DNA of 64,000 nucleotides from Actinobacteria bacterium RBG_16_68_21 (GTDB taxonomy: Bacteria; Actinomycetota; Acidimicrobiia; Spongiisociales; UBA11373), in contig MELR01000015.1 in assembly GCA_001767695.1 (NCBI GenBank), positions 39,887 to 103,886 on the forward strand. Reading direction: 5' to 3'. The position numbers and the translations under genes are program-made. The notes under the pieces were generated by a model. That model searched no databases. It saw only the letters and a list, made by a program, of their open reading frames with translations, and was not told where the DNA came from. Of this stretch, positions 3,344 to 38,355 are shown in pieces. The first letter of the stretch is position 1; every line of letters starts with the position of its first letter.

Positions 3344-5044
3344 ATGTCGAACCCACTGGTCGAGTGCGTCCCCAACTTCTCCGAAGGCCGCGACCCCAAG
3401 GTACTCGACGCCATCGCCGCCGCCATCACCTCGGTGGACGGCGTGGCGCTGCTCGATGTCGATCCCGGGGCTTCCACCAACCGCACCGTGGTCACCTTCG
3501 TCGGCTCGCCCGAGGCGGTGGTCGAGGGGGCGGTCCGGGCGGGACGGGCCGCCGCCCAGCACATCGAAATGAGCCGTCATCACGGCGCCCACCCTCGGTT
3601 CGGGGCGATGGACGTATGCCCCTTCGTCCCGGTGCGCGACATCACGATGGACGAGGTGGTGACGCTGGCCCGGGAGGCGGCCCGCCGGCTCGCCGACGAG
3701 GTCGGCCTCACCGTCTTCCTCTACGAACATGCCGCCTCCTCCCCCCGGCGGAGGAATCTGGCCGAGGTGCGCCAAGGCGAATACGAGGGACTGGCGGCCC
3801 GGCTGGCCGATCCCGAATGGCAACCCGACTTCGGCCCGGCGACGTTCAACCCCCGCAGCGGGGCGACCGCGGTCGGAGCCCGGGAGTTCCTCGTCGCCTA
3901 CAACGTCAACCTCAACACCACCTCGACCCGCCGGGCCAACGCGGTGGCCTTCGATGTTCGGGAGCGGGGGAGGGTGAAGCGGATCGGCGACCCGCTCACC
4001 GGCGAGGTGGTGCGCGGTCCCGACGGCGAGCCCGAGTGGGAACCGGGAGAACTCGCCGGTGTCAAGGCGATCGGCTGGTACATCGCGGAGTACGGGGTCT
4101 GCCAGGTGTCGATGAACCTCACCGACATCTCGGTGACCCCGATCCACGTCGCCTTCGACGCGGTGGCGGAGCACGCCGCCGCCCGGGGGATGCGGGTCAC
4201 CGGATCGGAGATCGTCGGATTGGTGCCGCTGCGGGCGATGCTCGACGCCGGCCGGCACTACCTGGCCCGCCAGCAGCGCTCGCTGGGGATCCCCGACGAG
4301 GAGATCGTCCACATCGCGGTGCGTTCCCTCGGTCTCGACGACCTGACGCCGTTCGACCCGCGCGAAAAGATCATCGAGTGGCGGGTCGCCGAGCAGGGGT
4401 CGCGGCTGGTCGACCGCAGCGTCGCCGGGTTCGTCGGGTCGGTGGCCGCGGAGGCACCCGCCCCCGGCGGCGGCTCGGTGGCGGCCCTCGCCGGGTCGCT
4501 CGGGGCGGCGCTGGGGACGATGGTCGCCAACCTGTCGGCGCACAAGCGGGGATGGGACGACCGATGGGAGGAGTTCTCCGACTGGGCGGTGCGGGGCAAG
4601 GACCTCCACGCCCGGCTGCTCCGTCTGGTCGACGAGGACACCACCGCCTTCGACGCGCTCCTCACCGCCCACCGCATGCCCCGCGGCTCCGAAGCCGAGA
4701 TCGCCGCCCGGGACGAGGCCGTCGCCGCGGCGACCCGGGGAGCCATCGAGGTGCCGCTGGCGGTGATGGCGGCGTCGTTGGAGGCGATGGCGGTGATCGC
4801 GGCAATGGCCGCCACCGGTCTCGACACCTCCGTCAGCGACGCCGGCGTCGGTGCCCTGATGGCGCGTGCCGCGGTTCGTGGCGCCCAACTCAACGTCGCC
4901 ATCAACGCCGCCGGGCTCGCCGACGCCGCCCTCCGCGACGACTACCTGGGGCGGGCGTCCCTCATCGCGGAACGGGCCGCCTCCGAGGAGGCCCGGATCC
5001 TGGCGGTGGTGGCGGCACGGATGCCTGCGGAGACCTCCCGCTGA
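3344..5044 (+). CDS. ftcD: Bifunctional glutamate formimidoyltransferase / formimidoyltetrahydrofolate cyclodeaminase.
   Basis: The N-terminus MSNPLVECVPNFSEGRD is the hallmark of formiminotransferases. The C-terminal half (APAPGGGSVAALAGSLGAALGTMVANLS) matches the cyclodeaminase domain. The alternative frame 3364..5136 is Arg/Gly/Pro junk. Confidence 0.85.
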   Translation: MSNPLVECVPNFSEGRDPKVLDAIAAAITSVDGVALLDVDPGASTNRTVVTFVGSPEAVVEGAVRAGRAAAQHIEMSRHHGAHPRFGAMDVCPFVPVRDITMDEVVTLAREAARRLADEVGLTVFLYEHAASSPRRRNLAEVRQGEYEGLAARLADPEWQPDFGPATFNPRSGATAVGAREFLVAYNVNLNTTSTRRANAVAFDVRERGRVKRIGDPLTGEVVRGPDGEPEWEPGELAGVKAIGWYIAEYGVCQVSMNLTDISVTPIHVAFDAVAEHAAARGMRVTGSEIVGLVPLRAMLDAGRHYLARQQRSLGIPDEEIVHIAVRSLGLDDLTPFDPREKIIEWRVAEQGSRLVDRSVAGFVGSVAAEAPAPGGGSVAALAGSLGAALGTMVANLSAHKRGWDDRWEEFSDWAVRGKDLHARLLRLVDEDTTAFDALLTAHRMPRGSEAEIAARDEAVAAATRGAIEVPLAVMAASLEAMAVIAAMAATGLDTSVSDAGVGALMARAAVRGAQLNVAINAAGLADAALRDDYLGRASLIAERAASEEARILAVVAARMPAETSR

Positions 5045-8482: not shown

Positions 8483-9238
8483 ATGCTTCGAAGAATCCTC
8501 AGATTGGCAATGGTCCTCGGTGTGATCACTGCCCTGTTCCCGATGGCTTCGGCCATCGCCACCATCCCGAGGACCGTCACCTGTGATGGTCTGACGGCGA
8601 CGATCGTCGGCACTCCCGGCGATGACGTCATCGACGGCACCAACGGAGATGACGTGATCGTCGGGCTCGGCGGTGACGACGTCATCGACGGTGGCGGTGG
8701 TGACGACGTCATCTGCGGCGGTGCGGGGAACGATGACCTGACCGGCGGCTCGGACGCCGACACGCTAGAAGGCGGCAACGGCCGAGATGTGCTGTCCGGC
8801 GGCGACGGCGACGACTCCCTCGACGGGGGGCGGGGACGTGACCGCATCGAAGGCGATGTGGGCAACGACACAGCTCACGGGTTCAACGGCAACGACAGGG
8901 TCCTCGGCGGCCCCGGCGACGACGACCTGTTCGGCGAAGCCGGCAACGACACCCTTCGCGGGGGCAGCGGCACCGATTCGATCTCCGGCGGCGAGGACGA
9001 TGACACCATCGACGGTGGTGGTGACGACGACGTGATCAGCGGTGACGACGATGACGATGAGATCTCCGGCGGCGAGGGCGACGACGAGATCGACGGTGGT
9101 GAAGGCGACGACACCCTCGACGGTGACGAGGGTGATGACAGCGTCGACGGTGGTGAGGGCGACGACACCCTCGACGGTGACGAGGGCGATGACACCCTCG
9201 ACGGTGGCGACGGCGACGACGTCGAAGTCGACGACTGA
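8483..9238 (+). CDS. Secreted RTX-type calcium-binding repeat protein with a highly acidic C-terminal repeat array.
   Basis: ATG at 8483 preceded by aggggggcagag. Signal peptide MLRRILRLAMVLGVITALFPMASAIA. Many GTPGDDVIDG / GGDDVIDGGGGDDVICGGAGNDDL nonapeptides. The tail is DGGEGDDTLDGDEGDDSVDGGEGDDTL... Confidence 0.7.
   Translation: MLRRILRLAMVLGVITALFPMASAIATIPRTVTCDGLTATIVGTPGDDVIDGTNGDDVIVGLGGDDVIDGGGGDDVICGGAGNDDLTGGSDADTLEGGNGRDVLSGGDGDDSLDGGRGRDRIEGDVGNDTAHGFNGNDRVLGGPGDDDLFGEAGNDTLRGGSGTDSISGGEDDDTIDGGGDDDVISGDDDDDEISGGEGDDEIDGGEGDDTLDGDEGDDSVDGGEGDDTLDGDEGDDTLDGGDGDDVEVDD
9085..9230 (+). repeat. Tandem 27-nt repeats (about 5 copies) encoding DGGEGDDTL / DGDEGDDSV nonapeptides inside the RTX gene.
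   Basis: gacggtggtgaaggcgacgacaccctc, gacggtgacgagggtgatgacagcgtc, gacggtggtgagggcgacgacaccctc and gacggtgacgagggcgatgacaccctc follow one another directly. Confidence 0.6.
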
Positions 9239-34288: not shown

Positions 34289-34798
34289 TCAGGCCGGGGT
34301 CGACACTCCCACCCCACCGCGCGTCTGTCCTCCGAAGCGGGCCTTCTCCGCGGCCAGGTCCAAGCGGCGCAGCTGCATCTTCGCCGCCCGGGTGGCGTCG
34401 TCGATGAGGTCGGCGGGCACCAGCCAGCACACCTCGAACTCGATGCCGTCGGGATCCCGCCCGTAAACCGCCTTGGTGGTTCCGTGGTCGGTGGCGCCCA
34501 CCATCGCTCCCGCTTCGGTCAAACGGGTGGTGATCTCCTCCAGGGCGTCCAGGGTGTCGACCTCCCAGGCGAGGTGGTACAGGCCGACCGTGCTCCGGCC
34601 GGCATCGGATGGGGACGCCTGGCGTCCGATGGCGAACAGCCCCAGGTCGTGATCGTTGGACGACCCGGCGGCCTGCAGGAACGCTGCTCCCGGCGGACCG
34701 CCGAGGTTGCGGAAGCCGAGGGCCTCCTCGTAGAAGGAGACGCTGCGCTCCAAATCCGTTACGTATAGGACGGCGTGGTTGAGACGGGCGATCGGCAT
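34289..34798 (-). CDS. VOC (glyoxalase / bleomycin-resistance / dioxygenase) family protein.
   Basis: MPIARLNHAVLYVTDLERSVSFYEEALGF. I use the internal Met of the track ORF. Confidence 0.7.
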   Translation of the reverse strand: MPIARLNHAVLYVTDLERSVSFYEEALGFRNLGGPPGAAFLQAAGSSNDHDLGLFAIGRQASPSDAGRSTVGLYHLAWEVDTLDALEEITTRLTEAGAMVGATDHGTTKAVYGRDPDGIEFEVCWLVPADLIDDATRAAKMQLRRLDLAAEKARFGGQTRGGVGVSTPA

Positions 34799-34892
34799 GC
34801 ATCTCTGAACGCCTGCCCTGGAGCGGTATTCCTCCTCCGCAGGCCCGGCGACCCCGCTAGCGTCCGAGGGGAGGAAGTCGAGAGGAGGGCTC

Positions 34893-35207
34893 ATGCACGA
34901 CCACCTCCGCCCGGTCGAACGGCGGATCCTCGCCCTGCGCGCCTCCGGCGAGTCCACCGATCAGATCGCCGCCCGGCTCCGGCGCAGCCCGGCGCATGTG
35001 GAGCGAATCATCACCTGGACCGACATCCCCCGATCGGGTCCGGCCCCGATGCTGGCACCGATGGCGCGGGGCCGGGTCGTGCTGGCACTCCGGGGTGACG
35101 GCATGTCCCGTGAAGCCATCGCCGAGAAGTTCGGACGTTCCGCCGAGTCCATCCGCCGCCTCGAGGGTCTGGCGCACTACCGGCGGGCACTGGATCTTCT
35201 CGGCTGA
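34893..35207 (+). CDS. Small protein with two tandem LuxR/GerE-like HTH units.
   Basis: ERRILALRASGESTDQIAARLRRSPAHVERI and RGRVVLALRGDGMSREAIAEKFGRSAESIRRLEG. It lies at the start of a lower-GC3 stretch. Confidence 0.45.
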   Translation: MHDHLRPVERRILALRASGESTDQIAARLRRSPAHVERIITWTDIPRSGPAPMLAPMARGRVVLALRGDGMSREAIAEKFGRSAESIRRLEGLAHYRRALDLLG

Positions 35208-35419
35208 AGCCGCGGGATACTATCCGGCGGTGTCTTCGGCGTTGATGAGCTACTACCACACCTAGCGGGGGAGATGGGTCGAGGCCCTGCTGTTCGTGGT
35301 GGTGCTCTCCCTGGCGGTGGCGACGGCATTCGTCGACGTGGCGTGGTGGGTGCGGATCGTGCTCGACGGATCCGGCGATCGTCTACTACCTGCTGGTCGA
35401 CACGTTCACCCGGCTCAGG

Positions 35420-35863
35420 GTGCGAGTCGGAGGAGAAGTCCTACGAGTGAGCTTCGGCCAGCGTTGGCCGCGCAAGGTGATCCCCCTCGCAGCAATCACT
35501 GCGGTCGGTGCCCGCCGGGGGAAGTGTGGTGGTACGGCTGGGGCATCCGACGAATTCCCGACGGATGGTTGTGGAACGTGGCGGGCTTCGACTACGTCCG
35601 ACGCCGGCGATCCGGAAGCGCTCGGCGAGTTCATTGCACGGGCCATCCTTGACAATCTCCACAAGTTCATCGTTCCGGCTGTTGCCGGGCCCGCGCGCTT
35701 GGTACCCCTCGCTGCCCTGGAGACCCACGGCCTCTCGCGCAACGCTCTTCGCGTTGCGGCAATTCGTGGACGCCTCCAAGCGACCAAGGGTCCAGACGGT
35801 CAGTGGCGAAGCTCACGCAACTGGGTTGATCAGTACATCGAATCCCGATATCGACGCATCTAG
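35420..35863 (+). CDS. Excisionase-family / MerR-like HTH DNA-binding protein. Start uncertain.
   Basis: C-terminus LVPLAALETHGLSRNALRVAAIRGRLQATKGPDGQWRSSRNWVDQYIESR looks like the excisionase-family HTH. GC3 is about 60% against about 85% in core genes. Confidence 0.4.
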   Translation: MRVGGEVLRVSFGQRWPRKVIPLAAITAVGARRGKCGGTAGASDEFPTDGCGTWRASTTSDAGDPEALGEFIARAILDNLHKFIVPAVAGPARLVPLAALETHGLSRNALRVAAIRGRLQATKGPDGQWRSSRNWVDQYIESRYRRI

Positions 35864-35973
35864 TGCCGCTGGAAATCGGGTGACATTCCCGCACGCCGGC
35901 CGAGGGGACGGCTTGTGCCCAGTAGCCGGCACCCTAGGCTCGTCTTCTCGTTCGAGTCTGTGAGGAGGAAGCG

Positions 35974-36708
35974 ATGGCAACCACTGACGATCTGAGTTCG
36001 CAGCGGTTCTACCACGGTACGAAGGCCGACCTGAAGCCAGGGGACCTGATCGTGTCCGGCCAATCGCCCAACTCCGGTGAACAGGATCGGGCAACCGGCT
36101 ACGTCTACCTGACCGGCACCCTGGATGCGGCCGCCTGGGAAGCGGAGCTGGCACCCGGCGACGGTCCAGGCAGGATCTACATGGTCGAACCGACCGGCCC
36201 GATCATGGATGACCCGGACCTCACGGGTAAGAAGTATCCGGGTCCGGCGAAGTCATACCGCTCCCGAGAGCCGCTGCGGGTCACGGGTGAGGTCACGGAT
36301 TCGCAGGGGCGCCCGCTGCGGTTCTACCACGGCACGAAGGCTGACTTGAAGCCAGGGAACCTGATCGGGCCCGGCCACTCTCCCAACTTCGGTGAACAGG
36401 ATCGGGTAACGGACTACGTCTACCTGACCGGCACCCTGGATGCGGCAATCTGGGGGGCGGAGCTGGCACTTGGCGGTGGAGCGGGCAGGATCTACGAAGT
36501 GGAACCGACCGGCCCGATCATGGACGACCCCAATCTGACGAACATGAGGTATCGAGGCAATCCGACGAAGTCCTATCGCTCTCGAGAGCCGCTGCGGGTC
36601 ACGGGTGAGGTCACGGATTGGCAGGGGCACCCCCCGGAGACACTCCAGGCCATGAAGGACGGCCTGGAGCAACTCAAGAAGCTTGGTGTTGAGCCGATCG
36701 AGGACTGA
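35974..36708 (+). CDS. arr: Arr-family (NAD+:rifampin ADP-ribosyltransferase-like) protein. It contains two tandem Arr repeat units of about 105 aa each.
   Basis: RFYHGTKADLKPGDLI...YVYLTGTLDAAAWEAELA...RIYMVEPTGPIMDDPDLT...KSYRSREPLRVTGEVTD is repeated almost exactly from aa 117. The second copy ends ...DWQGHPPETLQAMKDGLEQLKKLGVEPIED, as in single-domain Arr proteins. The nucleotide repeats are 36007..36321 and 36322..36636. Confidence 0.75.
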   Translation: MATTDDLSSQRFYHGTKADLKPGDLIVSGQSPNSGEQDRATGYVYLTGTLDAAAWEAELAPGDGPGRIYMVEPTGPIMDDPDLTGKKYPGPAKSYRSREPLRVTGEVTDSQGRPLRFYHGTKADLKPGNLIGPGHSPNFGEQDRVTDYVYLTGTLDAAIWGAELALGGGAGRIYEVEPTGPIMDDPNLTNMRYRGNPTKSYRSREPLRVTGEVTDWQGHPPETLQAMKDGLEQLKKLGVEPIED

Positions 36709-36901
36709 GTCAAGCCGTCCTCTGATGACTGTGAGGATCACGTCCGCCGGCCGAGGGGACTGTTGCCTGTCGCACACCCTGCCCGAGGGTGCCGTCATCT
36801 GAAGGGGGTGTGCACCCAAGAACCGCCGCCCACGGCGTGGTCCCGGCACCGGTGGCGGTGCCGGGACGCGCTCGTCGAAGCCTACGAACGGGCTCCATCG
36901 G

Positions 36902-37735
36902 CTAACGGAACAGGTGCCTGCCGAGGAATGCGGTGATGTCACCGGCGTGGGGCAGAAAGCGGTCGAGGTCGCTGTGGCCGCCGCCGTCGACGATCAGCAC
37001 CTCGGCGTCGGGACGTGCCGCCGCCAACTGGTGGAGGTTCTCCAACGGCACCACCTGGTCGGCGGCGCCGTGCACCAGCAAGGTCGGGACCCGCACCAGA
37101 GGGATCCGGTTGCGGGGGGCGAAGTCCTCGAAAGGCTGGCCGATTGCCCTCTGCATGATGGCGAGGGCTGCGGCGCGCACCGGTCGCGGCGCCGACGCCA
37201 TCTGCTGGCGCATCAGCGCACCGGGATCTGCCGGCGACGCCACCGACACCAGGACCTGAAGTGCACCGCCCCGCGAGGCGCTGAGGATCGCTGCCCCGCC
37301 CCCGACCGAGTGGCCGACGACACCGATCGTGGTGACCTCCTCACGCCCCGAGAGCCAGCCGAGCGCCGCGTCGAGGTCGTCGGCGAAACGGGGCATCGAC
37401 ACGAACCGGCGACGATCCGAGAGGCCGTGGTTGCGGACGTCGAGGAACAGCGAGTGAAACCCGGCCCGGTGCAGATGGGGAGCCAGCGGGAGCATCAGGG
37501 ATGCGTTGCCGCCCCAGCCGTGAAGGACGACAACGGCGGGAGCGGAACCTGCGACCGGGATGAACCAGGCGTGGAGGCGGGGACCGCCCGGAGCCTGCAA
37601 CCACACCTCCTCCTCGGGAAGGCCGAGTGCGCTGGGGGCGGACACACCGCGAGCGACGCCAAGGCGGACGTGGTCGATGCGGTGGGGGGAGACCAACCAC
37701 AGCCACTTGCGCAGGCCGCGGAGTCGGGTGGTCAC
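36902..37735 (-). CDS. Alpha/beta-hydrolase fold protein.
   Basis: VVLHGWGGN and GHSVGG (nucleophile elbow). The GTG start overlaps the TetR stop (GTGA at 37732-37735). The longer track ORF would run through the TetR gene. Confidence 0.7.
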   Translation of the reverse strand: MTTRLRGLRKWLWLVSPHRIDHVRLGVARGVSAPSALGLPEEEVWLQAPGGPRLHAWFIPVAGSAPAVVVLHGWGGNASLMLPLAPHLHRAGFHSLFLDVRNHGLSDRRRFVSMPRFADDLDAALGWLSGREEVTTIGVVGHSVGGGAAILSASRGGALQVLVSVASPADPGALMRQQMASAPRPVRAAALAIMQRAIGQPFEDFAPRNRIPLVRVPTLLVHGAADQVVPLENLHQLAAARPDAEVLIVDGGGHSDLDRFLPHAGDITAFLGRHLFR

Positions 37736-38355
37736 GCCCGGGCGATCCCGACGTCGCCGACCTCGCCCAGGCCGGCGTCGAGGAGGTCGAAGCACCTGGC
37801 CATGAGGTCGGGTAGGGATGCCTGGCCGCCTCCGGCCAGCCACATGGCCATCGAGGCCCGCATGGCGGAGAGTGCTGCGCCGGCGAGCAGTCGGGGCACT
37901 ATTTGGAGGTCGGGGTCCGGCCTCAACCATCCGGCGACGATCCCGGCCACGGCGGCCTCCCACTCCGCCTGGAGCTTGAGGCTGCGGGCACCGACGGACG
38001 GCACCGTGGTGATGATCCGGAATCGACGCAGCATCTGCGCCCGCTCGCTCTCGTAGTCGGCCGACACGGCGACGAACGCCGCTCGCAGCGATCGCCATGG
38101 CGACTCGTCGGCGGGACCCTCCTCCAATTCCGATACCAACCGGCCCAGGCGGGCGGCGTAGTCGGCGAGGACCACGTCCTCCTTGGAGGGGAAGTAGTGG
38201 AAGAAGGTCCGAGGAGCGATGTCGGCGGCGGCGGCGACCTCGTCGACCGTGGTGCTGTTGAACCCTCGCTGCTCGAAGAGGTCGAGGGCGGCGCGCTCGA
38301 TGGCGCCCCGGGTGCGCGCCTTCTTGCGCTCGCGCAGGGTGGCGTCGCCGGACAT
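37732..38355 (-). CDS. TetR/AcrR family transcriptional regulator.
   Basis: RTRGAIERAALDLFEQRGFNSTTVDEVAAAADIAPRTFFHYFPSKED. Divergent from the MMPL gene at 38452. Confidence 0.8.
   Translation of the reverse strand: MSGDATLRERKKARTRGAIERAALDLFEQRGFNSTTVDEVAAAADIAPRTFFHYFPSKEDVVLADYAARLGRLVSELEEGPADESPWRSLRAAFVAVSADYESERAQMLRRFRIITTVPSVGARSLKLQAEWEAAVAGIVAGWLRPDPDLQIVPRLLAGAALSAMRASMAMWLAGGGQASLPDLMARCFDLLDAGLGEVGDVGIARA

Follow-up and report, generated by a model that had tools for sequence, protein, structure and literature searches.

A tandem Arr protein with a putative rifamycin ADP-ribosyltransferase core and a degenerate Arr-like N-terminal domain in an aquifer actinobacterial genome

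Arr-ms of M. smegmatis (MSMEG_1221; PDB 2HW2, 9IAF) and the integron-borne Arr-2 (PDB 9IBA) are single-domain rifampin ADP-ribosyltransferases of 140-150 amino acids (aa); Arr activity is defined by ADP-ribosylation of the rifamycin C23 hydroxyl and an increase in the rifampicin MIC. The functionally verified Arr enzymes are all single-domain and about 140-150 aa long (PMC8492726). In Arr-ms, residues H19, Y49, D84 and F39 and the M[RK][DE]XL motif of helix alpha2 are needed for catalysis or rifampin binding; one half of the rifampin pocket is contributed by alpha2 (M126, L130, L133) and F39, and F9 of the N-terminal arm lies within the 'hydrophobic 2' rifampin contact (PMC6092378). The Arr-X group, a recently recognised lineage of mycobacterial and other rifamycin ADP-ribosyltransferases, retains the catalytic triad, but its drug cleft is altered and it differs in rifamycin preference (eLife 2026, PMC13246000), and Arr subfamilies are therefore able to differ in substrate range; Arr-X is also single-domain, and its description contains no mention of a tandem or duplicated Arr (PMC13246000). 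Here we describe an arr gene at positions 35974-36708 of a 64,000-nucleotide (nt) stretch of Actinobacteria bacterium RBG_16_68_21 (contig MELR01000015.1, hereafter the window), a metagenome-assembled genome (MAG) from the Rifle aquifer that is related to Acidimicrobiia; the TypA protein of this MAG and the one encoded in the window are 100% identical. Relative to Arr-ms and Arr-2, the 244-aa product of the gene carries an extra 105-aa Arr-like core in front. From sequence comparison we consider it probable (at about 0.62) that the C-terminal domain of this protein is a rifamycin ADP-ribosyltransferase and the N-terminal domain a degenerate accessory domain.

Architecture and conservation of the two cores

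The gene and the parts of its product were placed as follows.
35974-36708, + strand: tandem-Arr coding sequence with an ATG start, 244 aa plus stop; matches PF12120 and NF033144.
36007-36321, + strand: N-terminal Arr-like core (N-core), aa 12-116; PF12120 128.5 bits, model positions 1-98 of 99.
36322-36639, + strand: C-terminal canonical Arr core (C-core), aa 117-222; PF12120 145.9 bits; NF033144 195.9 bits, model positions 5-131 of 131.
36634-36705, + strand: C-terminal helix alpha2 and tail, aa 221-244; helix at 221-236 by DSSP in the AlphaFold2 (AF2) model; aligns to Arr-ms residues 118-141.

The whole protein matched both PF12120 (Arr-ms; E 8.4e-82, 270 bits, cut-off 25) and NF033144 (rifampin_ARR; 332 bits, cut-off 130) in two stretches, and either half was recognised by itself, aa 1-115 with 128.5 and 140.2 bits and aa 116-244 with 145.9 and 195.9 bits, respectively. 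The head-to-tail internal duplication of an Arr core, proposed in an original prediction made from the letters of the window, was thus borne out. The motifs that it had listed (FYHGTKA, YVYLTGTLDAAxWxAELA, EPTGPIMDDPxLT and KSYRSREPLRVTG) were all found in both units, and the WQGHPPE...LKKLGVEPIED tail follows unit 2 only, as it had described. Alignment of the protein with itself scored 370, against a mean of -197 and a maximum of -161 for shuffled sequences. The units are less alike than the 'near-identical' of that prediction, with 82 of 105 aa (78%) and 84% of nucleotides in common, a longest exact run of 37 nt, and a one-codon indel (YPG-PAK vs YRGNPTK) that changes the period from 315 to 318 nt. 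Its coordinates for the first unit (36007-36321) and for the start of the second (36322) held, and the end of the second moves from 36636 to about 36639. Nor is the 'whole Arr domain' duplicated: the repeat is a core of ~105 aa that excludes the C-terminal rifampin-binding helix. The end of the N-core (EVTDSQGRP-LR) is homologous to EVTDWQGHP-PE of the C-core, indicating that the duplicated unit extends from just before beta1 to the turn preceding alpha2.

Residues were compared core by core through an alignment to Arr-ms numbering, with the roles of the Arr-ms residues taken from PMC6092378. The C-terminal half aligned to residues 17-141 of Arr-ms (2hw2/9iaf; E 1e-44) and contains the triad as H119 (with G120 and T121), Y150 and D185, as well as N138, F139, P186, N187, L188, R192, Y193, N196, P197, T198, S200, W216 and H219; the tail adds the rifampin-pocket motif M227-K-D-G-L231, L234 and I242. 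The C-core and tail together hold all rifampin-binding elements, namely F39, DPN[VL], the beta5-beta6 loop (K91/L92/N95/P96/T97/S99) and alpha2. Departures from Arr-ms in this part of the protein are the SN[YF] motif, which reads PNF, and the rifampin-contacting N-terminal arm with F9, which is replaced by the inter-core linker. The N-core retains H14, G15, T16, N33, Y45 and D80, among them the triad that in Arr is catalytic and binds nicotinamide adenine dinucleotide (NAD), but it does not offer the rifampin-binding set: S34 stands for F39, D82 for N86 (giving DPDL), A92 for T97, S110 for W115 and R113 for H118, N95 is deleted and alpha2 is absent. It also has E56 at the position occupied in helix alpha1 of catalytic cores by G60. 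A check of both copies for the NAD- and rifampin-contacting residues, suggested in the original prediction, therefore came out differently for the two cores, with every contact present in the C-core, and the triad present but several contacts lost in the N-core. The protein as a whole has the Arr fold (the minimal ADP-ribosyltransferase (ART) fold plus alpha helices), and with two cores and 244 aa it departs from the single-domain length of ~140-150 aa.

The same asymmetry was found across the homologues of this protein. The H19/Y49/D84 triad is complete in 140 of 141 C-cores and in 66 of 67 single-domain Arrs, compared with 35 of 141 N-cores, and the window protein belongs to the minority whose N-core still has H14-G-T, N33, Y45 and D80. 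Conservation of N38, N95, T97, W115 and H118 reaches 99-100% in catalytic cores, and the same positions are degenerate in N-cores; the set of F39, N86, N95, T97, W115 and H118 is conserved at 89-100% in catalytic cores, and position 39 is variable in N-cores (V30 A13 S11). Close relatives of the window protein have incomplete triads in the N-core, which read Y-Y-D in P0001 (90% identical), Y-Y-A in P0002 and Y-Y-V in P0006.

We also compared the history of the two cores. The 141 tandem proteins, split into N- and C-cores, were combined with 67 single-domain Arr cores (349 sequences in all) in a neighbour-joining tree of 106 columns, in which all 141 N-cores fell on one side of a single bipartition, opposite all C-cores and the 67 single-domain Arrs. 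Every N-core, including that of the window protein, has another N-core as its nearest neighbour. The best split between tandem cores and most single-domain Arrs comprised 285 tips, 278 of them tandem cores. These topologies fit one old in-frame duplication within an Arr lineage, after which the gene would have spread both vertically and horizontally. C-cores of different proteins are on average 79% identical and N-cores 63%, and among six relatives with available DNA the ratio of nonsynonymous to synonymous substitution rates (dN/dS) was 0.12-0.28 for C-cores and 0.29-0.91 for N-cores. By these measures the N-core appears to be under weaker yet still purifying selection.

A protein search that spanned 5.8 billion proteins, with the 120 best clusters considered, returned only proteins of 233-270 aa with query coverage of at least 95% (mostly 100%) and identities of 65-90%. 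This search for further tandem Arrs, another of the checks that had been suggested, and the tandem forms present in genomes gave at least 140 homologues that are about 240 aa long and have the same two-core architecture. The tandem proteins come from Cyanobacteria, Acidobacteriota, Gemmatimonadota, Bacteroidota, Myxococcota, Chloroflexota and Actinomycetota, and genomes of at least six phyla carry them. Among GTDB species genomes, the genes are found in Nodosilinea, Nostoc, Trichormus and Synechococcales of the Cyanobacteria, and in Thermoanaerobaculia, Gemmatimonadales, Bacteroidetes, Polyangiaceae, Nannocystaceae, Bradymonadales and proteobacterial MAGs. When the protein library is clustered at 50% identity, the core family is reduced to a single representative (P0103, 353 bits) within a total of about 1,555 Arr-related clusters, so that the tandem form constitutes a single but well-populated subfamily. 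Its members begin with a leader MAxTDDL and a degenerate N-core that has no alpha2; a short linker then leads to a canonical C-core, and alpha2 follows. The window protein fits this layout; the N-terminus MATTDDL is conserved across the tandem family, which supports the ATG at 35974. The statement that known Arr proteins are single-domain consequently applies to characterised enzymes and not to the sequence databases, where tandem forms are numerous. The gene is no singular oddity, as it had first appeared, but part of a widespread old subfamily that is already public under the generic Arr name, several tandem proteins having been automatically named 'NAD(+)--rifampin ADP-ribosyltransferase' by NCBI. 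The architecture was not described in searchable papers on tandem, duplicated or pseudoenzyme Arr and PF12120, and the tandem form is mentioned nowhere in a genomic epidemiology survey, a metagenomic Arr study or the 2026 Arr-X paper. The gene thus belongs to a family of known enzymes, within which its two-core architecture is common but undescribed.

Proposed function and competing explanations

Our preferred reading begins with an in-frame tandem duplication of ~315 bp, in which the Arr core, spanning beta1 to the WxGHP turn, would have been repeated just ahead of alpha2. The resulting order would be leader, core 1, core 2 and alpha2, with only core 2 still joined to alpha2. Sequence and model show core 2 still packed against this helix and in possession of all the NAD+ and rifampin contacts that Arr-ms is known to make; it would be the working NAD+-dependent enzyme that ADP-ribosylates rifamycins. 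Core 1, having neither alpha2, which forms half of the drug pocket, nor several of the residues that are invariant in catalytic Arrs, may have been retained for stability or for shaping the substrate site. Since alpha2 and the invariant residues are lost, and the triad is gone in most members, the N-core is most likely a non-catalytic accessory domain that is mostly pseudo-enzymatic across the family, although that of the window protein may still bind NAD+. The predicted structure of the two-domain chain has a predicted template-modelling (pTM) score of 0.77 and the linker between the cores is about 10 residues long (5 residues shorter in cyanobacterial-type members), which together suggest that the cores form a fixed, tightly packed pair. 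Because the linker replaces the Arr-ms N-terminal arm that includes F9, the N-core is expected near the drug cleft of the C-core, and could stabilise or shape the substrate site. Among the possibilities raised in the original prediction, the triad counts, the missing alpha2 and the lost invariant residues agree with a module in which one domain is catalytic and the other a decoy or regulator.

The link to rifamycins draws some support from upstream sequences. The rifamycin-associated element (RAE) has a 19-bp consensus that we take to be GGGGCTTGCGGCAAGCCCC. This exact palindrome was found upstream of single-domain arr genes at two actinobacterial loci (L021, 2848-2866; L037, 2762-2780), which supports the assumed consensus. 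At L083, the locus of a tandem orthologue that is 83% identical to the window protein, the palindrome GGGGCTTGCAGCAAGTCCC occurs at 3921-3939, 80 nt upstream of the gene and with one mismatch. The published description (PMC10194278) confirms only that RAE is a 19-bp palindrome. The palindrome at L083 would indirectly support a connection between the tandem Arr and rifamycins.

A number of observations weigh against the assignment of catalysis to the C-core alone or against parts of the scheme built around it. Our picture of the inter-domain geometry, and hence of any shaping of the substrate site, comes only from the high pTM and the short linker. No RAE-like palindrome was found anywhere in the window, with up to 3 mismatches allowed. 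The monophyly of the N-cores received a bootstrap of 56/100 for the exact split among 349 taxa, which is only moderate. A second assembly, L091, differs at the end of the gene, stopping 375 nt into it (8519-8893, corresponding to window 35974-36348). The dN/dS of the N-cores lies below 1, so that some function has been kept, and this value does not indicate which one. The N-core of the window protein, moreover, possesses the full triad plus N33 and exceeds the NF033144 cut-off unaided (140 vs 130 bits), and it may provide a second active or NAD+-binding site.

These last features bear most directly on the idea that both cores are active, in a pseudo-dimeric enzyme with two NAD+-dependent catalytic sites. 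The substrate of the N-core would be a rifamycin or another compound, and parts of the C-core might stand in for its missing alpha2. The retention of H14-G15-T16, Y45 and D80 alongside N33, and a dN/dS of about 0.3-0.6 for the window N-core against close relatives, which is purifying, would agree with such an arrangement. We nevertheless regard it as improbable, given that the N-core has no alpha2 to supply the M126/L130/L133 pocket residues, lacks counterparts of F39, N86, N95, T97, W115 and H118, and belongs to a set of orthologues among which the triad is kept in only 35 of 141. The two nearest relatives show H to Y, and D to A or V, changes that argue that N-core catalysis is not what selection maintains. 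It is similarly doubtful that the N-core, as more than a passive relic, is a specificity or capture module that lies next to the drug cleft, still binds NAD+ in this protein and widens or shifts the substrate range, for example by permitting action on bulky or Arr-evading rifamycin congeners, or that it confers a second, non-rifamycin activity; a substrate other than rifamycins had also been suggested in the original prediction, and nothing in this analysis points there.

The similarity of the two cores could also be read without reference to function. If intragenic gene conversion (concerted evolution) kept them alike, the high identity between N- and C-core would reflect homogenisation and not shared function. 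Within-gene identity between the cores is indeed 77-81% in the clade of the window protein compared with 49-65% in distant members, within-gene synonymous divergence (dS) is 0.28-0.37 and does not exceed that between orthologues at ~80% aa identity, and the copies have exact runs of 33-37 nt in common. Yet the fraction of identical codons between the window N-core and its own C-core (0.80) is not above that between this N-core and the C-cores of other genomes (0.76-0.83), each N-core is closest to another N-core, and the low plateau of dS is explained by a strong codon bias towards GC at third positions (GC3). We found no codon-level signal of exchange between the halves and rejected gene conversion, which seems to us a fairly remote explanation.

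Further along this line is the proposal that the duplication is an artefact of assembly, or happened very recently in a single strain and has no functional meaning. One argument for it comes from L091, an independent assembly whose genome is almost identical (8 mismatches over 8.3 kb), in which the end of the N-core is joined straight to the WQGHPPE alpha2 tail (...REPLRVTG followed by WQGHPPEALKAM) as if there were a single core; the exact 244-aa product is also absent from the gene-position index. The tail in L091 is situated at a contig end and is a mosaic nearer to another allele (59/62 matches to L082), for which reasons it is likely to be a strain-chimeric collapse, though L091 may instead represent a genuine single-core deletion allele. 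Against an artefact, the copies in the window are told apart by 16% of their nucleotides and a codon indel, with no exact run longer than 37 nt, and N-cores of other organisms are orthologues of the window N-core, which is 85% identical to that of L082 and 80% to its own C-core. The at least 140 homologues come from independent assemblies, including those of P0002 (87% identical), which were obtained from three samples. The 84% nucleotide identity, the N-core orthology and the many independent assemblies rule out an artefact or a recent duplication in our judgement, and we attach next to no probability to either. The original prediction had named the absence of a PF12120 match and a repeat of exactly 100% nucleotide identity as findings that would count against it, and neither was seen, as PF12120 matches both halves and the identity falls well short of 100%. 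We accordingly keep to a rifamycin-modifying C-core with a degenerate N-terminal accessory domain.

Flanking repeats and genomic surroundings

The gene lies between two copies of a short direct repeat and has a candidate promoter of its own; the positions of these features were as follows.
35880-35909, + strand: left flanking element of ~30 nt, GTGACATTCCCGCACGCCGGCCGAGGGGAC (direct repeat D3), directly upstream of the putative -35 box.
35913-35940, + strand: putative promoter read from the sequence, TTGTGC at 35913-35918, a 16-nt spacer and TAGGCT at 35935-35940.
35964-35969, + strand: Shine-Dalgarno sequence GGAGGA, 4 nt before the ATG, read from the sequence.
36731-36760, + strand: right flanking element, GTGAGGATCACGTCCGCCGGCCGAGGGGAC (direct repeat); homology to other tandem-arr loci ends just after it.
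36840-36867, no strand assigned: perfect 12-bp inverted repeat with a 4-nt loop (I10), GTCCCGGCACCG GTGG CGGTGCCGGGAC, between arr and the convergent minus-strand alpha/beta hydrolase gene.

The 16-nt core of the flanking element, CGCCGGCCGAGGGGAC, has no exact occurrence in the 64-kb window outside these two copies, and a 13-nt inverted repeat (35903-35915 and 36711-36723) lies just inside the ends of the segment that it bounds. We also noted the flanking element in the form TGAYATTCCCGCACGCYGGCCSAGGGGAC. In L087 the element is present on both sides of the gene (about 1395-1425 and about 2250-2280), and in L082 it lies downstream of it (about 4765-4795). Homology between the window, L082, L087 and L090 is limited to the stretch from the left element to the point just past the right one, with different genes on either side, and the promoter block and 5' untranslated region are nearly identical in L082, L087 and L090, with different genes upstream. 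This distribution suggests that promoter and gene form a transferable cassette of about 0.87 kb, either mobile or delimited by recombination, in which arr would be a stand-alone resistance determinant with its own promoter. The promoter assignment is an inference from the sequence; scans of the region for an E. coli-type sigma-70 consensus and for intrinsic terminators returned nothing, and RNA folding of the flanking element and the 3' region was not more stable than that of shuffled sequences (z -0.9 to +1.2).

GC content is 63.5-65% across 35100-36900 compared with 68-72% in the flanks, and the dip covers arr and an upstream stretch of ~770 nt without a convincing gene, which is consistent with horizontal acquisition. 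The upstream neighbour is a small double helix-turn-helix (HTH) gene (34893-35207, + strand) of 104 aa with two HTH/sigma-70 region-4-like motifs. An open reading frame (ORF) at 35420-35863 (+ strand) has a C-terminus weakly like the excisionase-type HTH_17 (E 0.12, below threshold); other assemblies have the 104-aa gene called and this ORF not. Downstream, arr faces a convergent group of alpha/beta hydrolase, TetR and MMPL genes. The stem at 36840-36867 is a possible bidirectional terminator hairpin, and the terminator scan made no call there because a T-run is absent. The hydrolase ORF (36902-38098, - strand, 398 aa) overlaps the TetR (MftR-type) ORF (37732-38355, - strand) by ~370 nt; its N-terminal 180 aa are of low complexity, and its translation probably begins considerably downstream of the first ATG. 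The TetR and MMPL transporter genes form a pair beyond the hydrolase. No conserved gene neighbourhood was found, the seven distinct contexts of homologues all being different; no Rfam family was detected in 34500-37500, and the Arr protein was unmatched by the PADLOC defence models.

Relation to known systems and implications

The nearest mechanistic precedent that we can offer, by analogy, lies in the binary actin-ADP-ribosylating toxins. VIP2, iota toxin Ia, C2I and CDTa consist of two ART-fold domains that arose by ancient duplication, and in these toxins the C-domain is catalytic and the N-domain, devoid of catalytic residues, is an adaptor. Their evolutionary logic would be the same as that proposed here for the tandem Arr. 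Within the Arr family itself, we identified proteins (P0137, P0142, P0146, P0190, P0151, P0213 and P0189) in which an Arr core is joined to an unrelated N-terminal domain of the SRPBCC/AHSA1, GNAT, isochorismatase, SDR, Imm5-like or alpha/beta-hydrolase-like type. As in the tandem form, a canonical Arr core with alpha2 stands at the C-terminus, behind an accessory module at the N-terminus; in contrast to it, the module is not derived from Arr. Some of these proteins could be gene-call fusions. The existence of these unrelated fusions makes an accessory N-domain ahead of a C-terminal Arr a recurrent layout.

As a rifamycin-resistance enzyme Arr has clinical relevance, and its single-domain structure is the one against which new rifamycins and Arr inhibitors are being designed; should the additional domain alter the shape of the drug cleft, this would bear on substrate range and on the design of inhibitors. 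One survey obtained Arr matches of 36-679 aa and afterwards selected among them by identity and coverage against Arr-ms (PMC8492726), and resistome surveys that keep only Arr-ms-like proteins of ~140-150 aa may drop unusual lengths or fail to distinguish them. If the extra domain is inert, the tandem protein is simply an Arr with a structural appendage. An N-core that altered the substrate range or carried a second activity would raise the interest of the family, and if it is a capture module or has such an activity, the tandem Arrs would be a functionally distinct resistance class in environmental bacteria. The family also provides a natural series of the decay from enzyme to pseudoenzyme after internal duplication, in which members that keep the triad, such as the window protein, stand beside close relatives that have lost it.

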